Positions 10,845 through 44,123 of a stretch of 64,000 nucleotides of DNA are shown here, one piece after another. Numbering within the stretch: position 1 is the stretch's first letter; the number at the start of each line of letters is the position of its first letter. The stretch is from Alphaproteobacteria bacterium (lineage in GTDB: Bacteria > Pseudomonadota > Alphaproteobacteria > CAAGCB01 > CAG-977): the NCBI GenBank assembly GCA_017616015.1, contig JAFZYY010000030.1, forward strand, positions 247,706-311,705. Direction: 5' to 3'. Under the pieces are notes generated by a model that searched no databases, was not told the origin of the DNA, and saw only the letters and a program-made list of their open reading frames with translations. Made by a program: the position numbers and the translations under genes.

Positions 10845-10860
10845 CAGCAGATCGTTTTGG

Positions 10861-10888
10861 ATATACGTAAGTATATACTTGCGTATAT
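10861..10888. promoter_or_regulatory. 28-bp near-perfect palindrome directly upstream of dndB; candidate operator
   Basis: atatacgtaagtatatacttgcgtatat pairs at 13 of 14 positions. A TTGACA hexamer lies at 10841-10846 and GGAG at 10888-10891. Confidence 0.45.
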
Positions 10889-10899
10889 CGGAGTCCGCG

Positions 10900-11976: not shown

Positions 11977-11985
11977 GGAGATACA

Positions 11986-15455: not shown

Positions 15456-15844
15456 CAATGTTTATCAAACAAATTAGGCTTTCCGAAACTTCCAAAGAGC
15501 GTTTGAGCAGATTAAAAGGAAAAACGGGAATCAAGAATTGGAATATCCTTTGCCGTTGGGCTTTATGCTACTCTTTAAGCGAACAAACCCTTCCGACCGA
15601 TGTCCCGGTAAATACGGATAGCAATGTAGAGATGTCCTGGTTTACATTCGGCGGTGAATACAGCGATATTTACTCGGCCTTATTGGTTGCCTGGTGTCAA
15701 AGAATGAAATTATCAACAGATGAAGAAACGCTTGAAAAGTATTTCAAACTTCATTTAGAGCGCGGGATCGCATATCTTTCGGGCACGAACCTGATTAAAA
15801 GCATTGACGATTTGTTGAAATTGGCGATCGAGGTCAAAAAATGA
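15452..15844 (+). CDS. dndE: DndE
   Basis: MTMFIKQIRLSETSKERLSRLKGKTGIKNWNILCRWAL matches the DndE N-terminal pattern. ATG at 15452 overlaps the dndD stop (ATGA), with GGGGAG upstream. The track start at 15443 is a TTG. Confidence 0.75.
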   Translation: MTMFIKQIRLSETSKERLSRLKGKTGIKNWNILCRWALCYSLSEQTLPTDVPVNTDSNVEMSWFTFGGEYSDIYSALLVAWCQRMKLSTDEETLEKYFKLHLERGIAYLSGTNLIKSIDDLLKLAIEVKK

Positions 15845-28442: not shown

Positions 28443-28741
28443 TTCCGGGTTCCCCTTTTACGAACTTTGGGCGTGACCTCTTCCCTGAAAAGAGTGTCCG
28501 GTTTCTGATCAGAGATAAACAGGTTTTCAAAATCGTCGAGCCGACCCAACGCATTTGCCAAACGCAACAACGAATCAAAGGCGATCAGTCCCGTCCTTTC
28601 AAACCGGCGCAAAGACGCGAGCGTAACATCGGAACGGTCGCAAAGCCCCTGCTGTGACAGGTTTTGCTCTAACCGCAACGCCTTGATTCTTTGTGCGGTT
28701 TCCATCTGTATTTCATGCGGTGTTTTTAGAATAAATGTCAT
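28439..28741 (-). CDS. hipB: HipB-like XRE-family HTH antitoxin
   Basis: HTH QRIKALRLEQNLSQQGLCDRSDVTLASLRRFERTG. Overlaps the hipA start by 4 nt. Start chosen at MTFILK; the track ORF extends to 28804. Confidence 0.65.
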   Translation of the reverse strand: MTFILKTPHEIQMETAQRIKALRLEQNLSQQGLCDRSDVTLASLRRFERTGLIAFDSLLRLANALGRLDDFENLFISDQKPDTLFREEVTPKVRKRGTRK

Positions 28742-28847
28742 TATATTATCTTTTATAAGAATTAAAATTATTTTTATGATAATATATAAACGATTATTTT
28801 TCAATAGACGGTTTTCTCGAACGCCACGGACATTCTTGCAACCGAAC

Positions 28848-30572
28848 TTATTCCCGATACAGGTGACTTAAATCCAACCCATCATACTTCAACTTGGTAT
28901 TCACCGTTTCGCGCAGGACTTTAAGACTGACTTCCCCATAATGTTCGGACAGGCTTGATCCACCCTCCCATCCTTGAATACGCGTTACAAACTCCGGATT
29001 GGCTTCATTATTCCGGAACTCGGTACGCACTGTATGACGGAAACTGTGGAAGACATGACCTTCTTCAAACTTATCCGCCTTGGCTTTGATCCCTTTGTTC
29101 ACGCTGTCCAAAAACCGACCGAACCACTTGGAAATGTCATCGGAATAATGTCCCCGCGCATTGACGCGCAGTTCGGGAAACAGCCTCTTTTCCTTGCGCT
29201 TTTCTTTCACATAGTCCAGAAAACCGATTTTTATCAACTCATCATGCAGAGGAACAAGGCGAATCCCCGCCTTTGTTTTGACGTGCTTTTCTCCTTCATC
29301 GTTAATGCTGATTACCCAAACACCGTCAATTTGTCGGACATCTTTCGGGGTCAGTTGACACAATTCGTTGCACCTCGCACCTGTGAAAATTCCCAGCAAC
29401 GGAACCCAAAAACGCGCGTGTCTAGGGTGTGCGTCACCTTTGATCGCATATCCCCGTTTGTCGTCCCGACACCCTGTATAAATCGGAGCGTTGAAGATAT
29501 AGTTCAGTTGCCTTGCCGAAAAAGGCAAACGTTTTATTTCGTCTTCTTCATTGGCGGCACACGGAACATCGACCGTATCATACGGATTCTCGGTCAGATA
29601 TTTATACTTAACCGCCCAACCGAAAAAGCGTTTGATGACAACGAAATAATCCCCCAATGTCTTTGATCCGATGCATTCCGTCGGGTGTTTCTTTCCCCAT
29701 TCTATGTCTTTCAATACGTTGTATGTATCAGGTTTGCTCCGCGCGCTGTTCTTTGTGATGAACGGTAACAGTTCGACGGCGCGTTGCAGGTCTTCCGTCG
29801 TTACGGAACGTACCGTTTTATCTTTGCCCAAGATTTCTTGCAAAATATGGATTTTCTTGCTGACGCGGTTTTTGGAATCGGCGGATTTGTTCTTACGGGA
29901 ATTCTGGTTGTTATACACCTCCACCAAAGCGTCCAGTGTCATATCAGGTTTTAACGGCGTTCTTACCAACATCGGAGAGGAAACATTCTCCGCAGTCAGT
30001 CCCGAAGGGACTCCCACCGTCAGACGTTGAGGAGGAACATCCGTCACTCCGAGAGCGCAATGATGCATAAAATCGCAAAACTGCATTTCAGCGCGCATAA
30101 ATGCTTCTTCTAAGACTCGTTTGGAAGATTCCGTAGGGAACGGGTAATTGTTCCGCAGTAAAAAGGACAGACACTTCCGTTCAATAATCCCATAATCCGC
30201 CACGGCATACTTCGAATGCATCTGCGCAAACCGTTCCATATACGGTTCCGGTAACAACGGTTTTCCCGCGCAGCTTTCCCGTTCCTCCGCAATTCGGGAC
30301 AGCAAATACTCGTACGCGAACGTTTCCGCCTGACTGCGGTCATAATCCAGAGTGTGTTCGTCCTTGTCGTATCCCATTCTTTTTGCCATTTTTCCTTTGA
30401 AGTTCAACCGTTCGTACAAGTCTGACATTACCACGATATAGCGTCGTTGCGCAATTTGCTTATTCTTGGTTCTGAGGGACACCCACAGCTGTCTTTTACC
30501 GACCAGACTGCGGAAAGCGGTCGGTACATTCAGTACCGCATAATACGATGATCCGCGATTATAAAGACTCAT
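28848..30572 (-). CDS. tyrosine-type site-specific integrase (long form, 574 aa)
   Basis: Box I GARCNELCQL, HSFRHTVRTEF (HxxR), SSLSEHYGEV (Y). Its start faces the att repeat at 30686. Confidence 0.85.
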   Translation of the reverse strand: MSLYNRGSSYYAVLNVPTAFRSLVGKRQLWVSLRTKNKQIAQRRYIVVMSDLYERLNFKGKMAKRMGYDKDEHTLDYDRSQAETFAYEYLLSRIAEERESCAGKPLLPEPYMERFAQMHSKYAVADYGIIERKCLSFLLRNNYPFPTESSKRVLEEAFMRAEMQFCDFMHHCALGVTDVPPQRLTVGVPSGLTAENVSSPMLVRTPLKPDMTLDALVEVYNNQNSRKNKSADSKNRVSKKIHILQEILGKDKTVRSVTTEDLQRAVELLPFITKNSARSKPDTYNVLKDIEWGKKHPTECIGSKTLGDYFVVIKRFFGWAVKYKYLTENPYDTVDVPCAANEEDEIKRLPFSARQLNYIFNAPIYTGCRDDKRGYAIKGDAHPRHARFWVPLLGIFTGARCNELCQLTPKDVRQIDGVWVISINDEGEKHVKTKAGIRLVPLHDELIKIGFLDYVKEKRKEKRLFPELRVNARGHYSDDISKWFGRFLDSVNKGIKAKADKFEEGHVFHSFRHTVRTEFRNNEANPEFVTRIQGWEGGSSLSEHYGEVSLKVLRETVNTKLKYDGLDLSHLYRE

Positions 30573-30685: not shown

Positions 30686-30729
30686 TGGCTGGGGAACCTG
30701 GACTCGAACCAAGACTAACGGAGTCAGAG
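30686..30729. repeat. 44-bp direct repeat identical to the 3' part of tRNA-Gln (att site)
   Basis: tggctggggaacctggactcgaaccaagactaacggagtcagag is identical to 44050-44093. Flanking bases differ on both sides. Confidence 0.85.
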
Positions 30730-30856
30730 GGCATAATCTCTTGGTTGCACGATGATTGACCTGAATGGTTTGTTATTCGTTTTCTTATTTGAAATCAATA
30801 ACTTACTTCAAAGCTCCGTTCATTTTTCTTAATCTTCTTTTATGGCGATTTGTTTT

Positions 30857-30880
30857 GTCGGTTGACCGCGGGTTGACCGG
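30857..30880. promoter_or_regulatory. GGTTGACCG x2 direct repeats upstream of the P4-type integrase (candidate arm-type sites)
   Basis: gtcggttgaccgcgggttgaccgg. The same motif pair recurs at 43951-43976 at the other island end. Confidence 0.5.
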
Positions 30881-30893
30881 AAGGAGAAGAAAA

Positions 30894-32063
30894 ATGAAAG
30901 TGTTGTTTACTGAAAAATTCATCAGGGAACTGCGTCCGGAAGCCGGAAAAGAGCGTTTGGAAATAGCGGACGAAAGGTGCCCGTATCTGTATTGTCGGGT
31001 TTCGCCCCTCGGGGGAAAAACGTATGCCGTTATAAAAAAGGTTCAAGGAAAGACTGTTCGTGTCACTTTGGGAAAGACGAATGAAATCAGTTTGGATTTT
31101 GCGCGAAGACAGGCGTTCGACTGTTTGCAGAAAATCCGGCAGGGAATCAATCCGAATGAGGAAAAGCGCGCTTTGTCTTCTGAAATGACTTTGGGCGAAC
31201 TTTTTCAGGAATATGTTGAACGGTATGCCAAAGAGCAAACGTCATTAAAAACGCTTCGGGACAACATCAGTCTTTTCAAGCGGCGTTTTTCCCATTGGTC
31301 GGGGAAACGGATTTCGGAATTGCAAACGAAGCACATTGAAACGCTGATAATAAACTTGCGCGACAAGGACGGCATTTCCGCTTCCAACAAGGCTTTGACG
31401 CTGTTGCGTCATATGTATAACAAAGCCATTCAATGGGGATGGAACGGACGCAATCCGACAACCGGAATCGCCAAATATAAACTGGCTTCCAGAGAACGGT
31501 TCGTTTTGCCGGAGGAATTTAAAAAGCTTTTCGACGCCATTGACGGCGATCCCGATCCGGTTCACCGCACGTTCTTTTATGCTTTGCTCTATACGGGGCA
31601 AAGGTGCGGCAATGTTCTGGAAATGAGGTGGGAACATATCAATTTCACGAATGCGATTTGGTATATTCCCAGAACGAAAAACGGAACGTCGATGAGCGTT
31701 CCTCTGGTAAAACAACTCGTTTTTCTGTTGAAAAACCTGAAACGGGAAAGCGTGAAAAGCGATTGGGTGTTTCCGATGGGAGATGACGCAACCCGACATA
31801 TGGGCTATCCGCAAAAGGCGTGGAAGAGGTTGAAACAAACAGCGGGTATTGACAATTTACGGATGCACGATTTGCGCCGGACGGTTGCGAGTTATGAGTG
31901 TATGAACGGCGAAAATCTGTCCGTCGTTTCCAGAACGTTGAACCATAAAACGCTTCAGGCGACGCAAGTTTATGCGCGGGTGGACACGTCGGCGGTCGGT
32001 CGCGCATTGCAAAAAACGGTCAATCTGTTCGAACAAATCGCGAGTCAAAAAGAGGCTTTTTAA
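30894..32063 (+). CDS. int: P4-type tyrosine integrase
   Basis: ATG at 30894 preceded by AAGGAGAAG. N-terminal arm-binding-like region, then RCGNVLEMRWEHI (R), HDLRRT (HxxR), LNHKTLQATQVYARV (H...Y). The track ORF is extended upstream to a non-ATG start at 30765. Confidence 0.85.
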   Translation: MKVLFTEKFIRELRPEAGKERLEIADERCPYLYCRVSPLGGKTYAVIKKVQGKTVRVTLGKTNEISLDFARRQAFDCLQKIRQGINPNEEKRALSSEMTLGELFQEYVERYAKEQTSLKTLRDNISLFKRRFSHWSGKRISELQTKHIETLIINLRDKDGISASNKALTLLRHMYNKAIQWGWNGRNPTTGIAKYKLASRERFVLPEEFKKLFDAIDGDPDPVHRTFFYALLYTGQRCGNVLEMRWEHINFTNAIWYIPRTKNGTSMSVPLVKQLVFLLKNLKRESVKSDWVFPMGDDATRHMGYPQKAWKRLKQTAGIDNLRMHDLRRTVASYECMNGENLSVVSRTLNHKTLQATQVYARVDTSAVGRALQKTVNLFEQIASQKEAF

Positions 32064-32266
32064 GGCTCGATTCAAAGGGGATTTTTCTTTTGTGTCGTCG
32101 GACGAAAAGGCTATCCTGCAAAAAAATCCCCTCTGAAAAACTCTTGATAATTCAATACCCCGTTTTTTTTTGCAGGATAGCCTTTTAGTGCCACAAAAAC
32201 GGCAAAAAAATTTCTTGTTTGAGAATGTCGGCGTTATCTTTTATAAATAGGAAAAGAGGTGTTTTT

Positions 32267-33571
32267 ATGGTTGAAAACGAACGCACGGAATACAAAGAAA
32301 AACTGACCGCCGCTTTGGAAAAGGAAGCGGTGGCGTTCCTGAACGCGCACGGCGGAACGATCTATATCGGCATTGACAAGAACGGAAATACCGTCGGCGT
32401 CGAGAAGTGCGACAAGCTTCAACTGGAAATCAAAGACCGTCTGATAACGGGGATTCGTCCGTCCGTTATGGGCTTGTTCGACATCGCTTGCGAAAGTCTG
32501 GACGGGCGTGATGTAATCCGGATCACGCTTGCCGCGGGCAAAGAACAACCCTACTATATTCGCGCCAACGGTATGAGCGAACGGGGCTGTTTTATCCGCA
32601 TCGGCAGCTCCGCCCAACCGATGACGCAAGAGCAGATCGACTCAATTTACTACCGCAGAACGCATACGTCGTTGAGGAATATGCCGTCGCCGAATCAGCA
32701 CTTGGATTTCACGCAACTGCATATTTACTATGCGGGCAGAAAGCTGACTTTGAACGATTCTTTCGCGGACAATCTGCAACTGAAAACCGACGACGGGCGA
32801 TATAATATGACAGCGTATTTGTGCGCGGACGAAAACGGAATGCCGATTTTATTCGCCAAGTATGCCGGAACGGATCGGGACGTTTTAACGGAAAACAAGA
32901 ACTTCGGATATTGCTCTTTAATCAAAGCGACCGAACAAGTCTTGGACAAGTTTTCCGTTGAAAACAGGATTTACGCGCGCGTAACGGCGACCAAACGCGA
33001 AGAACGCCCGATGGTCGATCCGCAGGCGTTGAGGGAAGCGGTCATCAACGCGATTTTGCATAACGATTATTCATACAGCAACCCGCCGAAGTTCGAAATG
33101 TTTTCGGACAGGATAGAGATCACGTCAACGGGCGGCTTGCCGTGGGGTATGACAAAAGAAGACTTTTTCAACGGCAAATCGTGTCCGCGCAATCCCGAAT
33201 TGATGAGAATCTTTCAGGATATGGAACTGGTCGAGCGTCTGGGTTCGGGCGTGCGGCGTATTTTGAACGCTTATGCGCCGGACGTGTTCGAGATTTCGGA
33301 CACTTTCTTCCGGGTGACATTCCGGTATAAGCAGGCGTTTGATGAACCCGCCTCGAAAACTGCCCAAAAAACTAGGGAAAAAACTAGGGAAAAAACTAGG
33401 GAAAAAATCTTATCTCTGATTCAGGAAAACCCGTCTGTAACAGCGGTTGAACTGGCGGAAAAACTTGGATTGACAGCGAAAGGGATAGAATGGCAGCTGA
33501 AAAAGATGAAAGACGAGGGCGTCATTGAACGTGTCGGTTCGCTCAAAGGCGGCAAGTGGGTGGTAAAGTAA
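32267..33571 (+). CDS. AlbA_2 (Schlafen-like) + HATPase_c_4 + winged-HTH protein, often annotated as putative transcriptional regulator
   Basis: AVAFLNAHGGTIYIGID (AlbA_2); AVINAILHNDYSYSNPPKFEMFSDRIEITSTGG (HATPase_c_4); C-terminal wHTH. Likely start MVENERTEYKE. Confidence 0.7.
   Translation: MVENERTEYKEKLTAALEKEAVAFLNAHGGTIYIGIDKNGNTVGVEKCDKLQLEIKDRLITGIRPSVMGLFDIACESLDGRDVIRITLAAGKEQPYYIRANGMSERGCFIRIGSSAQPMTQEQIDSIYYRRTHTSLRNMPSPNQHLDFTQLHIYYAGRKLTLNDSFADNLQLKTDDGRYNMTAYLCADENGMPILFAKYAGTDRDVLTENKNFGYCSLIKATEQVLDKFSVENRIYARVTATKREERPMVDPQALREAVINAILHNDYSYSNPPKFEMFSDRIEITSTGGLPWGMTKEDFFNGKSCPRNPELMRIFQDMELVERLGSGVRRILNAYAPDVFEISDTFFRVTFRYKQAFDEPASKTAQKTREKTREKTREKILSLIQENPSVTAVELAEKLGLTAKGIEWQLKKMKDEGVIERVGSLKGGKWVVK
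33366..33401. repeat. 3 perfect copies of a 12-bp tandem repeat encoding (KTRE)n inside the 32267-33571 gene
   Basis: aaaaaactaggg x3, translating to KTREKTREKTRE in the linker before the wHTH. Confidence 0.9.
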
Positions 33572-33588: not shown

Positions 33589-33915
33589 CTATAAAGCTTT
33601 TAAGACACGGACGGCGCGGGAAAGGCTTTCGCCGTTCATTGTGGCGATCAGAGTTGCCGCTTCATTTTTTAAGGCGGATTGTTCCGTGCGCAGATGAGCG
33701 TCAGTATCCATCAAATCGCCGTAGGTGCAACCTAAAACGGCAACGATTTTTTCCAAAACTTCCAACGAAACGCCGACACCGCATTCGATATTACTGATTG
33801 TTCTTGTGCCAACATCGCACAACTCCGCCAAGCGTTCCTGCGACATTTTGGGACGCTTTGCTTTTCTGAACGCTTTAACGCGATTTCCAATCGTTTTTTT
33901 TAGGTTTTCACTCAT
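33589..33915 (-). CDS. XRE-family HTH transcriptional regulator
   Basis: MSQERLAELCDVGTRTISNIECG helix-turn-helix. 108 aa. Confidence 0.75.
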   Translation of the reverse strand: MSENLKKTIGNRVKAFRKAKRPKMSQERLAELCDVGTRTISNIECGVGVSLEVLEKIVAVLGCTYGDLMDTDAHLRTEQSALKNEAATLIATMNGESLSRAVRVLKAL

Positions 33916-34029
33916 ATACGCAGTCTAATTTCTATAAAACATAAATTTAATGTAGATTTTCTGTTTGTTTAGAGTCAAAATCCGCAAAAAGTTGCGTATT
34001 TTTACCGATAAACAGGAAGTTTCGTTTCT

Positions 34030-34674
34030 ATGTCCGAATCAAAGCAAGTCATCAGCGCGGAGCGTGTCGCGGAATACGGCGAGGTTTTGACCGCCGAGCG
34101 CGAAGTCGAAGCGATGTTGGATCTGGTTTCGGCGGAGGCGGCGCGAATCGACAGTCGTTTTTTAGAACCCGCGTGCGGAAACGGGAATTTTCTGACCGCT
34201 ATTTTGCGGCGCAAGTTGGAAACGGTCGCACGGCTTTACAAAGTAAAGCCGTCTGAATATCAGGAACAATCGTTGTTTGCGTTGGCTTGTGTTTATGGAA
34301 TCGACATTCTGCCCGACAACGCGCAGGCGGCGCGCGACCGTTTGACGGAACAAATGCGCGACAAATACAAAACGCTGTATAAAACCGAACCGGCGGAAGC
34401 CTATTTGAAAGCGGCGCGTTATATTTTAAGCAAAAACATCGTTTGCGGCGACGCGTTGAACGGCGTTGAAAAAATCAGCTTTATTCAATGGTCGTTGATT
34501 GACGGGAATTTCAAGCGGGAAGAATACAAGTTCGGGCATTTAACGGCGTCCTGTGCGGATTTGCCGTTGTTCGGATTTGCGGATGGCGATCCCGAAAAGC
34601 CCGTTTATCAAGCAAAATCCGTCAAAACATATCCATTAATATCTGTTTTAAAAATAGGGGAATGCGATGATTGA
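34030..34674 (+). CDS. methyltransferase-like protein (SAM motif I present, no clear catalytic (D/N)PP(Y/F))
   Basis: FLEPACGNGNFL (motif I-like), preceded by LTAEREVEAML (motif X-like). No NPPY; a CGDALNG stretch sits in its place. Overlaps the next gene by 8 nt. Confidence 0.5.
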   Translation: MSESKQVISAERVAEYGEVLTAEREVEAMLDLVSAEAARIDSRFLEPACGNGNFLTAILRRKLETVARLYKVKPSEYQEQSLFALACVYGIDILPDNAQAARDRLTEQMRDKYKTLYKTEPAEAYLKAARYILSKNIVCGDALNGVEKISFIQWSLIDGNFKREEYKFGHLTASCADLPLFGFADGDPEKPVYQAKSVKTYPLISVLKIGECDD

Positions 34675-36157
34675 ACAACACGCGCCCGATATTTTGTCCT
34701 GTATCGCCAACCTGTCCAGCGATGAAGTCTTCACGCCGCCGAAAGTCGCAAACGACGTTCTTGACCTGTTGCCGCAGGAATTGTTTTCCGATTCGAAAAC
34801 AAAATTCCTTGACCCGTGTTGCAAAAGCGGCGTTTTCTTGCGTGAAATCGCTAAGCGTTTGTTGGTCGGATTGGAAAAGGAAATACCCGATTTACAAAAA
34901 CGGATAGACCATATTTTCCACAATCAGCTGTTCGGATTGGCGTTGACGGAATTGACGGGATTGATGAGCCGGCGTTCCGTTTATTGTTCCAAAGACGCAA
35001 GCGGGAAATACAGCGTTTCGTTGTTCAAAAACGGACAGGGACATATCCGTTACAAACGGTGCGAACACGATTTTTATAACGGAAAATGCCGTCAATGCGG
35101 CGCGTCGCAAAGTCAATACGACCGCGGCGAAGCGTTGGAAACGCACGCCTATTCTTTCATTCACACAGACAAGGTTTTTAACGATATGCAGTTTGATGTC
35201 ATTATCGGCAATCCGCCGTATCAGTTAAATGATGGTGGAAATGCCGCAAGTGCGAGTCCAATTTATCATTTGTTTGTTGAACAAGCTAAACGCTTAAATC
35301 CCCGTTATTTAACGATGATCATTCCGTCCCGTTGGTTTGCAGGTGGCAAAGGTTTAGATGATTTCAGAGATGAAATGTTGCACGATGAACGGATCAGAGT
35401 GATTTGTGATTTTCCGACGCCTTCAGATTGTTTCCCAGGTATAAGATTAGAAGGCGGCGTTTGTTATTTCCTGTGGAATAGGGATAATAAAGGATTATGT
35501 GAAGTATCAACATTTAAAGACGGGATAAAAATATCGTCTTTAGCTCGTCCTTTGCTAGAGAAAGGTTGCTCTACTTTTGTCAGATATAATGAAAGCATTT
35601 CTATTTTAAGAAAAATCCAAAATTTCAATGAAATAACGATGGATAAAATGGTTTCTTCAAGAAAACCCTTTGGACTTCCCACCAATTTCCCGAATATTTT
35701 TAAAGAACCCAAAAAAGGATATATAAAAATATATGGATATTTGAAGGAAGGATATGTTAATCCTGCTCATATAAAACAAAACAGAGAATGGGTAGATAAG
35801 ATAAAAGTTTATATTTCAAAGGCGTATGGCGAAGTTAATACAAAGAATTCTCTTTTTGTTTTAGGAAAACCATTTATTGGAGAAAAAGGAACTTGCTGCT
35901 TAGAAACGTATCTGGTTGCAGGACTGTTCGATAAAATATCCTCTGCGGAAAATTTATGTTCTTACATTAAAACGAAATTTTTCAGATTTTTGGTTTCTCT
36001 TAAAAAAAATACACAAGATGCTACAGCAAAGGTCTATTCCTTTGTTCCGGTGCAGGATTTTTCAAAGCCGTGGACGGACGAGGAACTGTATGAAAAATAC
36101 GGGTTGAGCGAGGAGGAAATCGCTTTCATCGACTCTATGATTCGTCCGATGGAGTAA
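34667..36157 (+). CDS. Eco57I/gamma-class N6-adenine DNA methyltransferase
   Basis: Motif X FTPPKVANDVLDLL, motif I DPCCKSGVFL, motif IV IIGNPPYQ. Has a CxxC...CxxC insertion (YKRCEHDFYNGKCRQCG). About 250 aa follow NPPY, presumably the target-recognition domain. Confidence 0.8.
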   Translation: MIEQHAPDILSCIANLSSDEVFTPPKVANDVLDLLPQELFSDSKTKFLDPCCKSGVFLREIAKRLLVGLEKEIPDLQKRIDHIFHNQLFGLALTELTGLMSRRSVYCSKDASGKYSVSLFKNGQGHIRYKRCEHDFYNGKCRQCGASQSQYDRGEALETHAYSFIHTDKVFNDMQFDVIIGNPPYQLNDGGNAASASPIYHLFVEQAKRLNPRYLTMIIPSRWFAGGKGLDDFRDEMLHDERIRVICDFPTPSDCFPGIRLEGGVCYFLWNRDNKGLCEVSTFKDGIKISSLARPLLEKGCSTFVRYNESISILRKIQNFNEITMDKMVSSRKPFGLPTNFPNIFKEPKKGYIKIYGYLKEGYVNPAHIKQNREWVDKIKVYISKAYGEVNTKNSLFVLGKPFIGEKGTCCLETYLVAGLFDKISSAENLCSYIKTKFFRFLVSLKKNTQDATAKVYSFVPVQDFSKPWTDEELYEKYGLSEEEIAFIDSMIRPME

Positions 36158-36161
36158 ATCT

Positions 36162-38627
36162 ATGACCGAATTACTCGATTTTCCCGCCCGTCCGAAAATT
36201 TACGCTTACACTTTACCGGAATACAAAGACAAAAACTGGCTGAAAATCGGCTATACGACACGCGATGTCCGCGAACGCGTCAATGAACAGCACGGTGTGT
36301 TAAAACCGATTGAAACTGCCGCCGAAATCGTTTTTGAAACGGACGCCGTGCGTGATGACGGCACTTTGTTTCTTGATCACGATTTTCATCGCTATATCAA
36401 ACAAAACTGTATCAAACATTTGCGCGGCGAATGGTATGAAATCACTCTGCCCGAATTGAAAGCGGCGATGACCGCTTTTAAAAAACGTCGTCCAAACGTC
36501 GATCTGAAACGAACGGAAACTTTTTCTATGCGTCCCGAACAGCGCGACGCCGTTGATATGACCGCCGCTTATTTCAAGGTTTTTTCCGTTGAAAAGACGG
36601 GTAAAACGCCTCATTTCCTTTGGAACGCGAAAATGCGTTTCGGCAAAACGTTTGCCGCCTATCAACTTGCCAAAAAAATGGGGTGGAAAAAAATCCTTGT
36701 CCTGACGTTTAAGCCTGCTGTTCAAAGCGCGTGGGAATCCGACCTGAAAACACACACAGATTTTTCGGAGTGGCAGTTTGTCGTCAATGACGGGGAAGGT
36801 TATCAAAGAATCAATAAATCAAAGCCTTTTGTTTGGTTCGCGTCGTTTCAGGATTTGCTCGGCAAAAACGAGTTGGGCGGTATTAAAACCAAAAATGAAA
36901 TCGTCCACGCGATCAACTGGGATTGTATCATTCTTGACGAATACCATTTCGGCGCATGGCGCGACAGAGCCAAAGACCTCTACGATGCGGAAGAAAAAGA
37001 GGAAAATCCGCAAATAGACGATTATGACGAAGAATTGATGCCTTTGACGACAAACGCCTATCTGTATTTATCGGGAACGCCTTTTCGCGCCCTGAACAAC
37101 GGCGAGTTTCTGGAAGATCAGATTTTCAACTGGACTTATACGGATGAACAACGCGCCAAACGGGAATGGAACGAGGAAACGGAAAATCCGTATCTTGAAT
37201 TGCCTCAAATGGTGATGATGACTTACCGCCTGCCGCGTGAAATCCGTGAAATCGCTTTGCAGGGCGAGTTTGACGAATTCGATCTGAACGAATTTTTCAA
37301 AACTGAAAATAAAGACGGAGAGCCTGTCTTTAAACACGAAAACGAAGTGAAAAACTGGCTTGATTTGATACACGGTCAATACCTGCCGACCGAAATCGAC
37401 AGCCTGAAAACAGGCAAGCGTCCGCCGATGCCTTTTTCCGATGTCCGTCTGACCGCTTGTTTGCGTCATACATTGTGGTTTCTGCCGAATGTCGGCGCGT
37501 GCAAAGCGATGGAAAAGCTTTTAAAAAATCATTCTTTTTACGGTAAATATAAAGTCGTCTGCTGTGCCGGACAAGAAGCGGGCATCGGCGTTGACGCTTT
37601 ACCGCCCGTTACGGACGCAATCGGGAATAATCCGCTGAACACGTTATCCATTACGCTCTCTTGCGGCAAACTGATGACGGGTGTTTCCGTCAAGGCGTGG
37701 GGCGGTATTTTGATGTTGCGTAATACGTCCAGTCCCGAAACATATTTTCAGGCGGCGTTCCGCGTGCAAACGCCGTTCAAGCTTGTCAATCCGACCGGTG
37801 TTTATCCGAACGAAACGCAAATCGTCAAACCCGTTTGCTATGTCTTTGATTTCGCGCCCGACCGCGCGTTAAAACAAATCGCCGAATACAGCGGGCGGCT
37901 TGATTTGAACAGTCCCGACAGTCCGGAACAAAAAGTTTCGGAATTCGTCAAATTTCTGCCCGTCCTGTGCTATGACGGCGAAACGATGAACCTCTTGGAC
38001 GCGGGACAGTTGCTTGATATGGTCGTGTCGGGGACGGCTTCGACGATGCTTGCCCGTCGTTGGGAAAGCGCGCTGTTAGTCAATGTCGATAACGAAACGT
38101 TGAAGAAACTTCTGAACAATCCCAAAGCGATGGAAGCTTTGGAACGCATTGAGGGATTCCGCGGACTGAACAAAGAACTGTCCACAATCGTCAACCGCTC
38201 CGAAGCCTTGAAAAAAACTAAAAAAGAGGCGAGCGGTGGCGAAAGCGCGGCGGAAAAACGCGAACTGACTAAAGAAGAAAAAGAAATCAAATCCAAACGG
38301 AAAATCATTCAGGAAAAATTGCTGAAATTCGCGACCAGAATCCCCGTGTTTATGTATCTGACGGACGCGCGGGAACAAACTTTGAAAGACGTGATAACGC
38401 AACTTGAACCGGCTTTGTTCCGCAAAGTTACGGGCTTGACGATCCCTGATTTTGAATTGCTTGTCAGTATCGGGATTTTCAATGCGCAAGTGATGAACTC
38501 CGCGATTTTGGCGTTTAAACGATATGAAGAAGCGTCCTTAATCTATACGGGTTTGAACAGACACGAAAACGAACTGATCGGCGGGTGGGATACAACCTTT
38601 ACTGTCGAAGAAATGAGGCAGATGTAA
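36162..38627 (+). CDS. GIY-YIG nuclease domain fused to SF2 helicase (putative restriction subunit)
   Basis: N-terminus KIYAYTLPEYKDKNWLKIGYTTRDVRERVNEQ (GIY-YIG pattern). Helicase motifs MRFGKT, ILDEYHF, LSGTPF. 821 aa, starts 5 nt after the methyltransferase stop. Confidence 0.7.
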   Translation: MTELLDFPARPKIYAYTLPEYKDKNWLKIGYTTRDVRERVNEQHGVLKPIETAAEIVFETDAVRDDGTLFLDHDFHRYIKQNCIKHLRGEWYEITLPELKAAMTAFKKRRPNVDLKRTETFSMRPEQRDAVDMTAAYFKVFSVEKTGKTPHFLWNAKMRFGKTFAAYQLAKKMGWKKILVLTFKPAVQSAWESDLKTHTDFSEWQFVVNDGEGYQRINKSKPFVWFASFQDLLGKNELGGIKTKNEIVHAINWDCIILDEYHFGAWRDRAKDLYDAEEKEENPQIDDYDEELMPLTTNAYLYLSGTPFRALNNGEFLEDQIFNWTYTDEQRAKREWNEETENPYLELPQMVMMTYRLPREIREIALQGEFDEFDLNEFFKTENKDGEPVFKHENEVKNWLDLIHGQYLPTEIDSLKTGKRPPMPFSDVRLTACLRHTLWFLPNVGACKAMEKLLKNHSFYGKYKVVCCAGQEAGIGVDALPPVTDAIGNNPLNTLSITLSCGKLMTGVSVKAWGGILMLRNTSSPETYFQAAFRVQTPFKLVNPTGVYPNETQIVKPVCYVFDFAPDRALKQIAEYSGRLDLNSPDSPEQKVSEFVKFLPVLCYDGETMNLLDAGQLLDMVVSGTASTMLARRWESALLVNVDNETLKKLLNNPKAMEALERIEGFRGLNKELSTIVNRSEALKKTKKEASGGESAAEKRELTKEEKEIKSKRKIIQEKLLKFATRIPVFMYLTDAREQTLKDVITQLEPALFRKVTGLTIPDFELLVSIGIFNAQVMNSAILAFKRYEEASLIYTGLNRHENELIGGWDTTFTVEEMRQM

Positions 38628-38800: not shown

Positions 38801-39613
38801 TTATGTGTTCGACGTATTCAAAATTTTAGAGATACCATTATGTTTTTCTAACCAATCATAATAGCCGTCTATTTCAGGATATGTAAGATTTATTACAAAT
38901 TCAATTCCCCTTATGACAAGAATAAAATATACGGTAGCACATATGGCATTACCTATTTTCCCTTCTTTTATAATGAGAAAATCGCATTCAAATTTTTTCT
39001 GAATAGCACATCCTGATGAATCAATATCATATTCATACATACCGTAGATTCTTCGAATACTACATGGCCAATCATAAGGCGTTCCTAGTCTCGCATAATT
39101 ACGTATTAAGTCATATTGTACATCGTCAATAATTTCATTTAAACTATTCTCGATGTCTTTTAGACAATAAGCCCAATATTCAAGGGCGATTTTTGCAAGT
39201 AATCGAGATGTGTAAATATTACTTTCAAACTTTGTATTATCTGTAAAAACTGGAATATATAGATGTCCGCCTTTTGTGTTTTTTATAGCATTAAAAACAC
39301 TATCATTCATTATATGAAAAGTTAAGGTTAAAGGGGAATCTTCTATACAAATTTGTGTTTTTTTATCATTAAAGGTACATTCAACAGCAGGCATTCTACC
39401 TATTTTATTTGGAATTTTTTCATACAAACGCCATAATTTAACAACGTCTAAGTCCATAAATTTTTTTTCGACTTTACGTGCAAAATAGTTATTACATTTA
39501 TCACAGACATATCCACGGGGAAGTATTAAAGTCGTGTTGCCCAGTGATTCTGGTATTATATGTTCTATACTTTTTGTGCTTGAAGAATCTTGCTTACAAA
39601 ACAAACAACGCAT
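38801..39613 (-). CDS. HNH endonuclease family protein
   Basis: N-terminal CLFCKQ...HIIPESLGN...CDKCN (Cys4/His HNH core). 270 aa, AT-rich. Confidence 0.7.
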   Translation of the reverse strand: MRCLFCKQDSSSTKSIEHIIPESLGNTTLILPRGYVCDKCNNYFARKVEKKFMDLDVVKLWRLYEKIPNKIGRMPAVECTFNDKKTQICIEDSPLTLTFHIMNDSVFNAIKNTKGGHLYIPVFTDNTKFESNIYTSRLLAKIALEYWAYCLKDIENSLNEIIDDVQYDLIRNYARLGTPYDWPCSIRRIYGMYEYDIDSSGCAIQKKFECDFLIIKEGKIGNAICATVYFILVIRGIEFVINLTYPEIDGYYDWLEKHNGISKILNTSNT

Positions 39614-39873: not shown

Positions 39874-40245
39874 TTAATCTATATATATAAAAGATTGAGG
39901 GGGTTTTGCTATTCCATAATCCGCAAGAGTTTTTTCTTTTTTAAAGCGTGTCACCTTTCCCAATTGATAAGCATAAGCACATTCTTTTTGAGAAAAATAC
40001 TCCATAAATTTTTTTCTGCTAATGCCGGCTCTCGGAGATGTTTGATTCCATAAATCGCTGGGCGTAGATTTTAAGATATCTGTAACTTCAACTTCGCCAA
40101 CAACCTTCATTTTTGGGGCCGAGGTATAAATTAGAATTTTGTTGACCGAGCGAGAGGCGCATTTGCGGCGAAATTCAAATTTCTTTTCACCGGATAAAAT
40201 CCGTTCTGAATATTCCGGTTTGATAGATAGCAAAATCGTACACAT
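39874..40245 (-). CDS. ASCH domain protein
   Basis: 123 aa. ILLSIKPEYSERILSGEKKFEFRR matches the ASCH/PUA-like N-terminal beta-barrel pattern. Confidence 0.65.
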   Translation of the reverse strand: MCTILLSIKPEYSERILSGEKKFEFRRKCASRSVNKILIYTSAPKMKVVGEVEVTDILKSTPSDLWNQTSPRAGISRKKFMEYFSQKECAYAYQLGKVTRFKKEKTLADYGIAKPPQSFIYID

Positions 40246-40256
40246 GAGAACCTCTC

Positions 40257-41777
40257 TTAAACATACTTTATGGAAGTTTGAGCCAGTTGTAAAATTTTTT
40301 CATATTGTGCATCGGTAATTCGAGTAAACGATTGAGGACCACTTGGAAAAGAAAGAATTTTTTCATCCCATAGTTCTTTTAAAATAGGTCTTTTTACCAA
40401 AGGCGAAACCTGTATAAATTTTACGGCTATTAAATTGCCATTAAAATGATTCCATATGGCACGTAATTCTTTTTCTGGAAAGACACTTCTGTTTTGGCAG
40501 TATTTTATTAAATCGATTTCAGAATGCAAATCCGTTTTTATCTCATCAACGATACAAAGAGTCGATAAAACAGATTTATGGGCTTTTTTTTCATACGGCT
40601 CTGCCATTCTGTAAAAAAATACTAAATCCCCCGGATGAGCCCCATTCGTTTCTGTGGACCACGGTATATAAACTTTTTGTAAAGCATATTTACAAGCATC
40701 TTTTCCCAAAAAATTTATTTGGTTTTCTGTTTTTAACTGAGAATCGGGGAGAAGATGAGTGTGCCAACATGCTTTAATTGGCATAATGAATTTATTAACA
40801 TTATGAAGTATATTTGGGAAATTCTTTTTAGGAGAAAGAGTTGAATCATATGTGTTTAATTTTTTTACAAAAACCGCCTCTTCCTTACCCGTAGAAGTGT
40901 TTTTTCCATATCTAAAAAATCCCCATCTTTCGAATAATTCTTGGAGAGCTCCAAGTTCGGGGCGGTCTTCAAACAGGGTAACATAAATTTCATCTACCTT
41001 GCGTTTTAAAGCATTATCAAAGATGATTTTTATAAATCTTTCTCCTAGACGAAAGCCAGTAGATTCGACTTTAAATGTTCCTACTTTTAATCGACGTTTG
41101 GGTAAGAAGGTCGGTTGCATATATGGATAAGGTTCCGTTTCTTCTTCTGTTTTTAAATATAAAAAACCTAAAATATTATTTTGATCGTCATTACAAATAT
41201 ATGCTTCTTCATCGCATTTTTTTGCGAACCAATCTTCAAAACCGGGATAATCTTTTTTAAATGTATTAAAGAAATTATCCTTTACATTTAGATCCCCAAA
41301 AAGAGTTTTTCGGACAGACAACGCTTTATATTCAATTAACTGGGGATAACGTTCTGAAGCAGATTTAATGAAGTGATCTATGGAATAGACTCTATCTCCT
41401 AAACCTATTTCTGCCGCTTTTTTTTGTAATCCCTTATCTTCAGTTATTAAAATATTGGCGTGATTTAAAAATAAAGAATTTAACAAAATAGTATCGTTAA
41501 AATCATTCTCAGTTTTATCAATGCTTTTAAATTTTTCATAGATTGTCTTATCGATACTCTCGTTAACCTTTAAAACATTATAAGAGGACAATTTTATTTT
41601 AAAGGCTTCTCTAACGGTAGGGCTATTATATTTTTCTATTTCCTTTATAGAAACAGGATGGACAATCTTCTCAAAATGCAAGCGATCTAGCCAACGGAAA
41701 AGATGTCCAATGCTGTAATTCATTGGAAAAATACTTTCACGATAGATCAGTATGTTTGTATCAAGAAGAACCCTCAT
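40257..41777 (-). CDS. PIN domain + GNAT acetyltransferase-like + PUA-like (EVE/ASCH-type) fusion protein
   Basis: 506 aa. MRVLLDTNILIY and ILITEDKG (PIN). TGFRLGERFIKIIFDNALKRKVDEIYVTLFE then LQELFERWGFFRYG (GNAT motifs A/B). C-terminal GDLVFFYRM...KSVLSTLCIVDEI (EVE-like). Confidence 0.6.
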   Translation of the reverse strand: MRVLLDTNILIYRESIFPMNYSIGHLFRWLDRLHFEKIVHPVSIKEIEKYNSPTVREAFKIKLSSYNVLKVNESIDKTIYEKFKSIDKTENDFNDTILLNSLFLNHANILITEDKGLQKKAAEIGLGDRVYSIDHFIKSASERYPQLIEYKALSVRKTLFGDLNVKDNFFNTFKKDYPGFEDWFAKKCDEEAYICNDDQNNILGFLYLKTEEETEPYPYMQPTFLPKRRLKVGTFKVESTGFRLGERFIKIIFDNALKRKVDEIYVTLFEDRPELGALQELFERWGFFRYGKNTSTGKEEAVFVKKLNTYDSTLSPKKNFPNILHNVNKFIMPIKACWHTHLLPDSQLKTENQINFLGKDACKYALQKVYIPWSTETNGAHPGDLVFFYRMAEPYEKKAHKSVLSTLCIVDEIKTDLHSEIDLIKYCQNRSVFPEKELRAIWNHFNGNLIAVKFIQVSPLVKRPILKELWDEKILSFPSGPQSFTRITDAQYEKILQLAQTSIKYV

Positions 41778-41780
41778 GTG

Positions 41781-42809
41781 TTACACTCTTTTCCTTTTGT
41801 TGAAGATATTAACGAGCCCTTTTATTAAAAATATCCCTATTAATATAACGATTAGAAACAATAGTATTTTATATTCAATAGGAATCTTTCCAAACGCAAA
41901 AGGTTTGTTTTCAAAAATCTTTCTGATATTGCTGATTGCTATTAACGAACTGCATAAAATATTTACAAATATTGCAATTATTATCTGTTTTGCTCCAATT
42001 TTTTCTTCGGAAAAAATTGAAAAAAACGAATAACTCGGCTTGCCTTCATCTTTATAAAAAGTTGTTATATACGAATCATTATTTATGCCTTCTATGTTTG
42101 GAAGGTACTTTTTAAAAAAGTTTGTTTCAAGATTACGTATATTAGACAGTTTTTTATCATCAACAAAAATAACTTCATATGTATTTGGAATGACATGTAG
42201 CATTAATGCCTTTTGAATATCACTGCACTCGAGGTTCTTTTTATCTATCGTTTCAATGATTTTTTGTGGCATATTCCTTTTTTCATTAATTTTAAAATCG
42301 AATATAAAGATGTTTTTTGAAATACTTCCTTTGAAAAGAGCAAAAGTTTTTTCATACGTTTGGATAAGAAATCTTATGTAAGGATGAGCATCATTAGCTG
42401 ATTTATTTGTAAAGGTTATATTCAAAACTCCATCTTTTTCTACATGGCATAATACGTTTAAAGCCGCAATTTTTCGGTCGCTGTTTTTAAAAGAGATTAT
42501 TGATCCGTTGTGTTTATTTCCATTGATTGGAGATATAGATTCTACAACTTCATTAAAAATGAATTGAGCATTATCAGAATCGCTAAACTTTTCGTGAAGA
42601 CTTTCTATTTTGCATTTTTCACTTATCCAAGGAGCAAAAAAGAACATATTATAATTCTCATCAATTTTTAAAGAATCCTTACAAAATTCTACTCCTATTT
42701 CGATGCAAGTTTTTTTATCGCGGATATCCCATGAGCATATTTGCATACGTTCAATTCTTTTCGTTTCTATATTGTTTTTTTCGTGCAAAAGAAATAATGA
42801 GTTATCCAT
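41781..42809 (-). CDS. membrane protein with two C-terminal TM helices and an ~270-aa N-terminal soluble domain
   Basis: Hydrophobic helices IIIAIFVNILCSSLIAISNI and ILLFLIVILIGIFLIKGLVNIF at the C-terminus. 4-nt gap to the next gene. Confidence 0.55.
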   Translation of the reverse strand: MDNSLFLLHEKNNIETKRIERMQICSWDIRDKKTCIEIGVEFCKDSLKIDENYNMFFFAPWISEKCKIESLHEKFSDSDNAQFIFNEVVESISPINGNKHNGSIISFKNSDRKIAALNVLCHVEKDGVLNITFTNKSANDAHPYIRFLIQTYEKTFALFKGSISKNIFIFDFKINEKRNMPQKIIETIDKKNLECSDIQKALMLHVIPNTYEVIFVDDKKLSNIRNLETNFFKKYLPNIEGINNDSYITTFYKDEGKPSYSFFSIFSEEKIGAKQIIIAIFVNILCSSLIAISNIRKIFENKPFAFGKIPIEYKILLFLIVILIGIFLIKGLVNIFNKRKRV

Positions 42810-43341
42810 TTAACACTCCTGCTAGAAATTCGATAACCTCTTTCTCATCATATCCATTATACTGCATATGATGAATATATAAAGGAGTTCCGGTGTGGTT
42901 TGAAAAGATTTCGGCTTGATGATGTTCCGCTGTCATAAGAGTTGTTATCTCGAGTAAAGAATAATCTTTTTTATCTCTATGCAACAAGTTTTGTTGAAGT
43001 CTTACGGGATCTGCTTCTAATAACAATATTTTTTCAAAATGCATTTTTGCTAAATCATCTAACGATAATAAGTCCGGAATATTTCCTTTTTTTAAAATAC
43101 AGAAATGACCGTCTAAGAAAAATAGAGGATATGTTTTTAATTTTTTTTCAATCTGCTCAATTAGAAGGGCTTGGTTGTTTTTTTTATTCGTCACATATTT
43201 ATTGCGACCATATGTTTCATCATTGACTTCAGATATTAACATACCGGCAGAAAAATGCGGGATTTTCGTTTTTTCAAAGATACTTTCCAAAAGTGTACTT
43301 TTCCCGACACCATAACAGCCCGCGACAAAAATTACTCCCAT
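42802..43341 (-). CDS. P-loop NTPase, nucleotide-kinase-like
   Basis: Walker A AGCYGVGKST and Walker B-like LFFLDGHF. 179 aa. Overlaps the next gene by 8 nt. Confidence 0.65.
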   Translation of the reverse strand: MGVIFVAGCYGVGKSTLLESIFEKTKIPHFSAGMLISEVNDETYGRNKYVTNKKNNQALLIEQIEKKLKTYPLFFLDGHFCILKKGNIPDLLSLDDLAKMHFEKILLLEADPVRLQQNLLHRDKKDYSLLEITTLMTAEHHQAEIFSNHTGTPLYIHHMQYNGYDEKEVIEFLAGVLNG

Positions 43342-43436: not shown

Positions 43437-43661
43437 TTACTCCGCCCTGTCTGTTGATACGTTTTTGTTGATCCACTCGTCCAAATCGGTTTTTCGGTAT
43501 CGGATGACTTTCCCCAATTTGACAAACGGCAAGCCGTATTTGTTCGTCATACGCCAGACGGCAAGCGTGTTGATCTTGACGCCGATGTAAACAGCGGCGT
43601 CTCGCGGTGTCATCAATCCGGCGGGGGATATGTTGCAGGCTTCTTTACAGGTTCGTTCCAT
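43437..43661 (-). CDS. xis: AlpA-family excisionase/HTH regulator
   Basis: MTPRDAAVYIGVKINTLAVWRMTNKYGLPFVKLGKVIRYRKTDLDEWI matches the AlpA/Xis pattern. The track ORF is longer (to 43727); start chosen at MERT. Confidence 0.6.
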   Translation of the reverse strand: MERTCKEACNISPAGLMTPRDAAVYIGVKINTLAVWRMTNKYGLPFVKLGKVIRYRKTDLDEWINKNVSTDRAE

Positions 43662-43950
43662 ATGTTCCTCCTTTCTTTGACGAAGGCTTGAACACACAGA
43701 AACACCAGCGCACACGTCCTTCATCAAATAAATGATGTTGATTTCGTTTGAATTGTGTGCAGGCTCGGTAAATACCGGTCTGTGCTAAAAAGCTGTTATC
43801 AATCTAAGCATATCAACGCCTTGTTTGCAATATCCCCCGTGTATGATTGTGATTGATTATCGTTACCGGACGGAAAAAAGAAAATACGGATTGCGTTTTT
43901 TACGCTTTTGACTGATGATGAATGAGGAAGATTGATGACATTTGAACGGT

Positions 43951-44049: not shown

Positions 44050-44123
44050 TGGCTGGGGAACCTGGACTCGAACCAAGACTAACGGAGTCAGAGTCCGCTG
44101 TTCTACCTTTAAACTATTCCCCA
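44050..44123 (-). tRNA. tRNA-Gln (anticodon CUG)
   Basis: 74 nt including CCA. Acceptor stem tggggaa/ttcccca, T-loop TTCGAGT, anticodon loop cuCUGac. Its 3' 44 nt (44050-44093) are duplicated at 30686-30729. Confidence 0.9.

Follow-up and report, generated by a model that had tools for sequence, protein, structure and literature searches.

What kind of enzyme is encoded when two consecutive methyltransferase-like genes are followed by a third gene in which a GIY-YIG-type nuclease domain precedes a helicase-type ATPase? This question is raised by a locus in the genome of an Alphaproteobacteria bacterium (assembly GCA_017616015.1), where such a set of genes lies within a 64,000-nucleotide stretch of contig JAFZYY010000030.1 (positions 247,706 to 311,705), referred to here as the window. 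The three open reading frames (ORF1, ORF2 and ORF3; Table 1) were recovered with exactly the boundaries given in an earlier note made from the sequence, and the encoded proteins match MBO4521421-23 of an Alphaproteobacteria metagenome-assembled genome (MAG) at 100% identity. With a probability of roughly two in three, the operon represents a three-subunit, ATP-dependent restriction-modification (R-M) system, comparable to a Type ISP or Type III enzyme divided among several polypeptides. This reading is carried by domain content, conserved catalytic-type residues, conservation of the operon, fusion variants and a mobile defence-island context, and it is on these grounds that we infer methylation, cleavage, ATP dependence and contacts between the subunits. 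To our knowledge, most of what is understood of ATP-dependent R-M comes from Types I, III and ISP, whose nucleases all belong to the PD-(D/E)xK type.

The candidate restriction subunit is ORF3, the most conserved of the three proteins according to their conservation profiles (58-66% identical across phyla), and the NCBI name of its identical entry MBO4521423.1 is 'GIY-YIG nuclease family protein'. A GIY-YIG pattern followed by helicase motifs, as read in the earlier note, is borne out, with both the T5orf172 domain and the ResIII match (aa 121-267, 26.4 bits vs a cut-off of 22.5) lying above the Pfam cut-offs; MUG113 is also matched by ORF3 homologues. Residues Y14, Y16, K28, G30, T32, R39, H76, E90 and E93 are invariant in the T5orf172 domain, and R39 together with E90/E93 is unchanged in 26 sequences from several phyla. 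A catalytic arginine and metal-binding glutamates are therefore present by their position in the motif pattern, the roles of the residues being assigned according to PMC8263062, a study in which nuclease activity of a T5orf172 domain was proven for phage ICP1 Odn and the conserved catalytic glutamate was found to be essential. In the structural model of ORF3, the T5orf172 part reaches predicted local distance difference test (pLDDT) values of around 80-87. The ATPase core contains MRPEQ, GKT (161-163), DEYH (259-262) and SGTP (304-307, with SGT at 304-306), followed by the motif VI-like QxAFRVQ (530-536), of which Q530 and R534 are invariant. No Pfam or PDB match was found for the C-terminal 265 aa; since the corresponding region runs straight into the methylase in fused relatives, it is treated as a putative coupler or docking domain.

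Does a domain of this type necessarily cut DNA? T5orf172 has been described as largely uncharacterised with predicted DNA-binding functions (PMC9973331), domesticated homing-endonuclease domains can be DNA-binding regulators and not nucleases, as the title of PMC8096241 has it, and in vitro cleavage has not yet been seen for MtsD, the helicase-nuclease of the MANTIS defence system. The operon could accordingly provide a methylation-based defence without DNA cutting, or kill the cell (BREX-like or abortive), with T5orf172 as a DNA-binding module. We regard this as improbable, as the arginine and glutamate required for GIY-YIG catalysis are invariant in the ORF3 family and the overall layout parallels that of Type ISP enzymes, which cleave.

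The three genes are closely coupled. The coordinates of ORF1 and ORF2 share 8 nt (ATGATTGA), with a GGGG Shine-Dalgarno-like stretch 5' of the overlap, and the stop codon of ORF2 is separated by 4 nt from the start of ORF3, which is preceded by GGAG; overlapping or close starts with Shine-Dalgarno-like sequences thus point to a translationally coupled operon. When genome loci offering no less than 2.4 kb of upstream DNA were considered, 58 of 61 kept the order ORF1-ORF2-ORF3, usually with overlapping starts, and the three exceptions carry remnants; these loci stem from many bacterial phyla and two archaea. This linkage contradicts the possibility, raised in the earlier note, that ORF3 is a repair helicase with a housekeeping role and no relation to the methylases. 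Such a role might be read from weak Foldseek matches of the poor ORF3 model to XPB and from an XPB match in NCBIfam (E = 0.009), but the latter is far below threshold (14.6 bits vs a cut-off of 610) and sub-threshold matches of this kind were rejected as evidence of a repair function; besides its synteny, ORF3 is fused to a methylase in Firmicutes plasmids and located on a mobile island, which leaves the repair alternative scarcely credible.

The features described here exceed chance by far, with homologues of each of the three proteins numbering in the thousands. Homologues of ORF3 are exceedingly common. A word-indexed search returned at least 8000 matches, the best 120 of which are still ~64% identical (Fusobacterium, Melainabacteria and others), and at least 594 ORF3-type loci occur in a one-genome-per-species collection, the best 80 of them being 58-85% identical and distributed over many bacterial phyla as well as Woesearchaeota and Thermoplasmata MAGs. 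The combination of GIY-YIG nuclease and helicase, which the earlier note had called uncommon, is uncommon among characterised enzymes but not in genomes. An exhaustive search of 50%-identity representatives gave 3666 clusters at E <= 1e-3 and 978 at E <= 1e-30, including single-chain forms of 1300-1530 aa. Plasmid-borne homologues exist in cultured bacteria (Rhizobium, Sphingopyxis, Deinococcus, Corynebacterium, Mycobacteroides and others), and gut phage contigs carry ORF3 homologues, too. One of these, from the human faecal phage NatCom_35866 (Caudoviricetes; L095, 1652-6883), contains a three-gene operon encoding proteins of 260, 506 and 974 aa, with an ORF3 homologue 55% identical to that of the window. 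When the locus was compared with plasmids by megablast, no match was obtained. Within this very large and uncharacterised family, the module of the window looks ordinary.

This distribution also bears on whether the operon restricts at all. For the Bacillus subtilis system DnmA-YeeB-YeeC, an epigenetic or relic function has been proposed; there, deletion of yeeB/yeeC left phage sensitivity unchanged and deletion of dnmA did not alter transformation efficiency (PMC9973331). The present operon might likewise methylate without restricting. Against this stand the full length of ORF1-3, the invariance of nuclease-type and ATPase residues across phyla with ORF3 as the most conserved protein, the 978 clusters at the stricter threshold, and carriage on plasmids, phages and islands; moreover, YeeABC-type homologues of V. 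crassostreae protect against phage, as far as can be taken from their citation in PMC9973331. A purely methylating operon is hence given little credence.

The adenine methyltransferase of the operon is ORF2, with Eco57I (PF07669, E = 1.1e-36) as its best Pfam family, MmeI_Mtase remaining at 18.6 bits vs a cut-off of 27. Its C-terminal half matches PADLOC MTase_II PDLC03375 with E = 1.1e-64, and its motifs comprise EVFTPP (X), FLDPCCKSGVFL and GNPPYQ; NPPY (182-185) and the downstream motifs are invariant among homologues. The full Eco57I-type set claimed in the earlier note is confirmed for EVFTPP, NPPY and the family assignment but not for motif I, which is non-canonical: in LDPCCKSG, the invariant K53 replaces the first glycine of GxG (BREX PglX: LDPACGSG). 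Motif II (FGLALTE) likewise shows an invariant departure, with A92 in place of the acid (BREX PglX: FGLDID), and a canonical motif III of the GDxL type was not seen in the ORF2 sequence. Written as patterns, the two degenerate motifs are LDP.CKSG and FG.A.TE. A canonical motif I for binding of S-adenosylmethionine (AdoMet) together with an acidic motif II is therefore lacking in ORF2. The string described earlier as a Cys4 insertion holds three cysteines only, and one of them, C132, lacks conservation; the candidate zinc ligands that are conserved in the insertion form a CHCC set (C107, H134, C141, C144). Among the three proteins, a variable region is confined to ORF2 (~aa 281-300 and 341-400, column conservation 0.34-0.46), and this variable C-terminal part is probably the recognition region.

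Opposite in character is ORF1, in which GEVLTAEREV (X-like), FLEPACGNGNFL (I), YGIDIL (II) and VCGDAL (III) were identified, so that a canonical motif I and the motif II acid are both present. Motif X- and I-like sequences without (D/N)PP(Y/F), the motif IV, had already been pointed out in the earlier note, and motif IV is indeed missing from ORF1 as well as from every aligned family member. The only Pfam match, MmeI_Mtase, is sub-threshold (19.5 bits vs a cut-off of 27), PADLOC assigns the Type II methyltransferase profile PDLC03313 (E = 1.4e-10) besides a weak match to PDLC03390, and the comparison list names BsaXI, DrdV, BpuSI, MmeI and PglX below its top entry, while one homologue is labelled 'type III restriction endonuclease subunit M' by NCBI. 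Thousands of homologues exist as stand-alone proteins of ~215-235 aa with roughly 50% identity, in which GEVLTA.REV, FLEPACG(D/N)GNFL, YGID(I/L)L.DN, KNI..GD(S/A)L and F..QW..L...FKREE are (near-)invariant. ORF1 was earlier suspected to be a decayed N-terminal half; this is refuted by these homologues and their invariant motifs, by the synteny described above and by the persistence of the gene as a separate unit even beside fusions. Judged from the sequences, ORF1 is thus a genuine, conserved third subunit and not gene debris. The suggestion that it might act as specificity subunit is unlikely, too, since its conservation profile contains no hypervariable segment and the variable region resides in ORF2. 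Two further candidates were rejected. ORF1 and ORF2 are not one frameshift-broken gene: ORF1 is a paralogue of the N-terminus of ORF2, with a mutual match confined to motifs X and I, so that neither continues the other, and their presence as two genes is conserved. Neither is ORF1 a second active methylase for the other strand, given the absence of (D/N)PP(Y/F) from all aligned family members. A role as second subunit, AdoMet-binding or regulatory, is favoured.

Fused, split and permuted relatives illustrate how these parts belong together. Plasmid pAT02-a of Enterococcus faecium encodes a 248-aa ORF1-like 'N-6 DNA methylase' (39% identity to ORF1), followed by a 1445-aa protein combining T5orf172, helicase and methyltransferase, whose C-terminal 480 aa align with the entire ORF2 and display an even more degenerate motif I (FADLYVKSG). 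The same parts as in Enterococcus are found in L. brevis ATCC 367, with the small gene placed downstream, and three-gene forms occur in M. chelonae and Legionella adelaidensis, where the small protein matches the ORF1 profile with probabilities of 99.7 and 98.2, respectively. In motor-methylase fusions, the piece after the ORF3-like C-terminal region is a degenerate N-half, and the ORF1-like gene stays separate even where helicase and methylase are fused. A different division is seen on plasmid pTS1 of Treponema saccharophilum (L092 and L094, across the record origin), where a divergent helix-turn-helix (HTH) gene is accompanied by genes for a 311-aa N-half, a 344-aa NPPY half and an 1118-aa T5orf172-helicase. 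Here, the 311-aa protein matches PADLOC PDLC03390 with E = 1.1e-106 and the ORF1 profile with a probability of 93.4 (columns 41-148), the 344-aa protein matches PDLC03375 and begins with MKFDFCIGNPPY, its gene, which starts just before NPPY, overlapping that of the 311-aa protein by 4 nt, and the C-terminus of the 1118-aa protein is a degenerate N-half (QIFTP...FIDLYMKSGLY). In the gene table of PLSDB, the 311-aa gene has no entry. Each of the variants examined in detail therefore has a lone intact N-half, a degenerate N-half, an NPPY/recognition half and a nuclease-motor. Single-chain relatives can also be deduced from the PADLOC Type IIG profile PDLC03626 (1359 aa), to successive parts of which ORF3 (aa 115-621 on profile positions 150-677) and ORF2 (aa 173-495 on positions 1009-1359) are mapped.

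How, then, might the methylase work? As the AdoMet-contact motifs of ORF2 are degenerate and ORF1 keeps motifs X, I, II and III without NPPY, ORF1 is thought to supply or complete AdoMet binding in a composite methylase, a proposal whose chances we rate as appreciable but short of even; that ORF1 serves as an accessory or regulatory subunit comes close to even odds. In the strictest form, an obligate composite methylase of a kind for which no description was found, and which is doubtful, ORF1 would be the AdoMet-binding half, and the catalytic ORF2 would retain a pseudo-half without cofactor binding that docks or couples the motor-nuclease. If true, all three proteins would have to assemble before methylation, and perhaps restriction, could proceed, providing a checkpoint against self-cleavage. 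An equally uncertain alternative is a self-sufficient ORF2 with non-canonical AdoMet binding, leaving ORF1 as accessory protein, be it an AdoMet sensor licensing restriction, an adaptor linking methylase and motor-nuclease or an MtsB-like activator of methylation. The N-terminal half of ORF2 is of full length, bears motif X (EVFTPP) and still reveals the scaffold of motif I; the model of ORF1 is compact and shows a beta-hairpin of its own following strand 3; and MANTIS exemplifies that methylases of related defences can need non-catalytic partners (bioRxiv 10.64898/2026.09.23.753747). A self-sufficient ORF2 is difficult to reconcile, however, with its invariant departures at K53 and A92 and the lack of a visible canonical motif III next to an ORF1 with perfect motifs I-III. 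Moreover, the Treponema N-half gene overlaps a gene starting just before NPPY, as expected of one enzyme in two pieces, and REBASE-derived profiles exist for each half alone (PDLC03390, 327 aa; PDLC03375, 348 aa).

Taken as an R-M system, the operon would operate as follows. ORF2 would read a short DNA sequence via its variable C-terminal region and place a methyl group on adenine N6 through its NPPY pocket, with ORF1 possibly supplying or completing AdoMet binding. ORF3 would dock onto the methylase through its conserved C-terminal domain, its SF2 DExH ATPase would translocate or signal along unmodified DNA, and the N-terminal T5orf172/GIY-YIG-type domain would cut the DNA.

Expression may be timed by the HTH_3 protein encoded divergently from ORF1, 114 bp upstream, which would act in a C-protein-like manner on entry of the island into a new host. 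A small HTH controller is thereby found beside the presumed R-M genes, and a divergent HTH gene occupies the equivalent position in loci L001, L006 and L009 as well as in the Treponema variant. Searches for a C-box in this region of the window (consensus scans, inverted repeats) yielded one short palindrome, the 14-nt hairpin CGCAAAAAGTTGCG at 33983-33996 between regulator and ORF1, and weak inverted repeats.

Several points weigh against an R-M system of this kind. The AlphaFold2 model of ORF3 is poor (pLDDT 57, predicted template modelling score 0.33) because the alignment is shallow, so that one can only guess at the type of motor and at what the C-terminal domain does; its Foldseek matches (Snf2/ISWI, XPB, RIG-I, SauUSI and HsdR) are weak, all with E > 1e-3, and support an SF2 ATPase, no more. 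Motif VI of ORF3 has a single arginine. Sequence and profile searches of the PDB gave no match for ORF3 and marginal motif-level matches only for ORF1 and ORF2 (BseCI, PglX, HsdM). As regards the composite methylase, the lysine in motif I is no proof that ORF2 fails to bind AdoMet, and with ORF2 retaining a whole N-terminal half, a simple division into two pieces falls short as an explanation. Finally, no methylation motif or restriction phenotype for any family member was found in the literature searched, and the nearest analogue, DnmA-YeeB-YeeC of B. subtilis, methylates without restricting phage or transforming DNA (PMC9973331).

The behaviour of the locus in other genomes speaks in favour of the R-M system. 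In ~16 loci, inserts of roughly 0.7-3.7 kb lie between the operon genes, encoding DUF1016/YhcG, RhuM, Fic/SoFic, Bro-N, fused DarT-Macro and AlbA_2-HATPase_c_4 proteins. As DUF1016, RhuM and Fic/DOC have been reported between Type I R-M genes (PMC9881135), the presence of these passengers amounts to behavioural evidence for treatment of the operon as an R-M locus. Passenger loci include L024, L025, L031, L034, L044, L048, L049, L056, L058, L059, L060, L063, L076 and L084, with insertion at the ORF2/ORF3 or ORF1/ORF2 junctions; some of the inserts appear to be toxin-antitoxin-like pairs, as judged from their translations. In an Opitutales genome (L079, 2543-4213), a gene of AlbA_2-HATPase_c_4-winged HTH (wHTH) architecture sits between the ORF1 and ORF2 homologues. 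The ATP-dependent R-M system proposed in the earlier note thus gains support from homology and from context, the latter comprising a C-protein-like regulator, R-M-type passengers and a defence island.

Table 1 Positions of the operon and of neighbouring features within the window
Feature	Position	Strand	Remarks
ORF1	34030-34674	+	214 aa; stand-alone N-terminal half of a gamma-class N6A methyltransferase
ORF2	34667-36157	+	496 aa; Eco57I-family gamma-class N6-adenine methyltransferase (Pfam Eco57I, PADLOC, conservation profile)
ORF3	36162-38627	+	821 aa; restriction subunit candidate: nuclease domain, motor and C-terminal domain
T5orf172 domain (GIY-YIG superfamily) of ORF3	36198-36470	+	aa 13-103; Pfam PF10544, 25.5 bits vs cut-off 20
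Superfamily 2 (SF2) DExH ATPase/translocase core of ORF3	36522-37781	+	aa 121-540; Pfam ResIII and invariant columns
C-terminal domain of ORF3	37827-38624	+	aa 556-821; conservation 0.75-0.94; Lys/Glu-rich coiled segment at ~aa 665-720
HTH_3 (Xre/C-protein-like) regulator	33589-33915	-	108 aa; Pfam HTH_3 E = 3.1e-9; PADLOC Control_protein E = 7.4e-12
Intergenic region between regulator and ORF1	33916-34029		114 bp; divergent promoters and operator presumed from sequence
attL, left border of the island	30686-30729	+	44-nt direct repeat of the tRNA-Gln 3' end
tRNA-Gln (CTG)	44050-44123	-	3' 44 nt (44050-44093) = attR, right border of the island
Tyrosine integrase candidate	30765-32063	+	from ORF translation and position beside attL
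AlbA_2 (Schlafen)-HATPase_c_4-wHTH gene	32219-33571		within the island, just upstream of the operon
HNH_5 endonuclease-domain protein	38801-39613	-	stand-alone, 270 aa; directly downstream of ORF3, convergent; weak similarity to Septu PtuB
PDC-M11B + PDC-M11A	39874-41777	-	candidate defence pair
342-aa protein overlapping AAA_17 kinase-like ATPase (179 aa)	41781-43341	-	342-aa protein without family match
AlpA-like excisionase candidate	43437-43727		read from translation
HipA-like kinase toxin (365 aa) and upstream HTH antitoxin-like ORF (121 aa)	27345-28804	-	likeness taken from translations
Dnd-type phosphorothioation cluster	8499-16992		left of the island
PLD + SF2-helicase protein of the Dnd cluster	8499-10844		
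DndB	10879-11976		Pfam E = 5e-112
DndC	11986-13524		PAPS-reductase-like
DndD-like AAA_23 protein	13521-15455		
Class-V aminotransferase/cysteine desulfurase of the Dnd cluster	15841-16992		
AAA_21 ATPase	2096-3241		upstream of the Dnd cluster
AAA_23 ATPase	5922-7991		upstream of the Dnd cluster

The operon is carried by a 13.4-kb island delimited by 44-nt tRNA-Gln repeats (Table 1). Of the candidate defence pair on this island, PDC-M11B comprises an ASCH domain (123 aa, E = 4e-46) and PDC-M11A, of 506 aa, a PIN-like domain at its N-terminus (E = 4e-180); the same pair is also located 3' of the R-M operon in locus L007, and similar AAA_17/18 genes occur in corresponding position in L006 and L007. 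A further integrase-like ORF (28848-30572, minus strand) just outside attL suggests that islands are arranged in tandem at this tRNA, and the HipA/HipB-like pair lies to the left of the island, between a DUF927 gene and this outer integrase. Together with the Dnd cluster, these features and the genes of the island make the window a composite defence region.

The family is very common and unusually conserved, and no motif, phenotype or structure was found for it in the literature. Its analysis would reveal the way in which a translocase works together with another nuclease chemistry, and whether separate AdoMet-binding and catalytic subunits can assemble into a DNA methylase; it would also tell what gene-transfer barrier is carried by many gut and environmental bacteria. 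The window itself offers an intact, well-annotated defence module in a defined mobile island.

Compared with known systems, Type III enzymes (EcoP15I, EcoP1I) share with the operon a methylase gene upstream of an SF2 ATPase-nuclease gene, and Pfam ResIII matches ORF3. In Type III systems, though, Mod is a beta-class methyltransferase whose recognition domain lies between the catalytic motifs, and the PD-(D/E)xK nuclease of Res is found at the C-terminus; asymmetric sites are hemimethylated, and cleavage requires ATP and sites in inverse orientation. ORF2, in contrast, displays the gamma order of motifs (X, I ... IV) with a C-terminal variable region (~aa 281-400), and ORF3, while possessing the ATPase, has an N-terminal T5orf172 as its sole nuclease-like domain.

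The Type ISP enzymes LlaGI and LlaBIII combine nuclease, motor, methyltransferase and recognition in a single polypeptide, whereas these functions would be distributed over three ORFs in the window, including an extra half-methylase subunit for which Type ISP has no counterpart; even the single-chain relatives of the operon keep a separate small subunit. The nuclease of Type ISP enzymes is likewise N-terminal but of the Mrr/PD-(D/E)xK type, as opposed to the T5orf172/GIY-YIG-type domain of ORF3, and sequence similarity of ORF3 to LlaGI or LlaBIII was not detectable. Type ISP relatives with GIY-YIG nucleases were anticipated by Sisakova et al. (PMC3553950), and Iyer et al. (PMC4738411) counted T5orf172 as one of the nuclease domains of R-M systems.

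A further likeness exists to the YeeA (DnmA)/YeeB/YeeC clusters, in which a gamma-class N6A methylase with specificity, an SF2 helicase and a GIY-YIG-type nuclease are likewise encoded in one conserved operon. Such clusters of an MmeI homologue with YeeB and YeeC were predicted by Morgan et al. to act in R-M with helicase and GIY-YIG nuclease (PMC2731913; also PMC9973331), and the methylase alone has been studied, as DnmA (PMC9973331). In these clusters, the MmeI-family methylase lacks its nuclease domain, and the YeeB helicase and the T5orf172 protein YeeC are separate proteins encoded downstream of it, while both parts are fused in the 821-aa ORF3 with T5orf172 coming first; in addition, the methylase of the window is a 496-aa Eco57I-family protein with MmeI_Mtase below the cut-off and is accompanied by a small half-methylase gene, unlike in the YeeA/YeeB/YeeC clusters. 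In concept, the operon also resembles MANTIS (Gao_RL), where a methylase with non-catalytic partners hands over to a helicase-nuclease effector (bioRxiv 10.64898/2026.09.23.753747). MANTIS differs by its AAA+ protein MtsA, by MtsB and by a PLD nuclease, and apart from the methylase fold, no homologous parts were detected.

Literature searches yielded no account of the present architecture or of its half-methylase subunit, and no published mechanism for the REBASE-derived PADLOC-DB profiles PDLC03626, PDLC03375 and PDLC03390 was found. These profiles cover pieces of the operon, although the arrangement in the window differs from the single-chain form, and the matches to them imply that the pieces have already been catalogued as R-M components by curators. 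The novelty is therefore to be sought not in this particular copy but in the family as a whole, with its presumed composite methylase and its GIY-YIG-type motor-nuclease.

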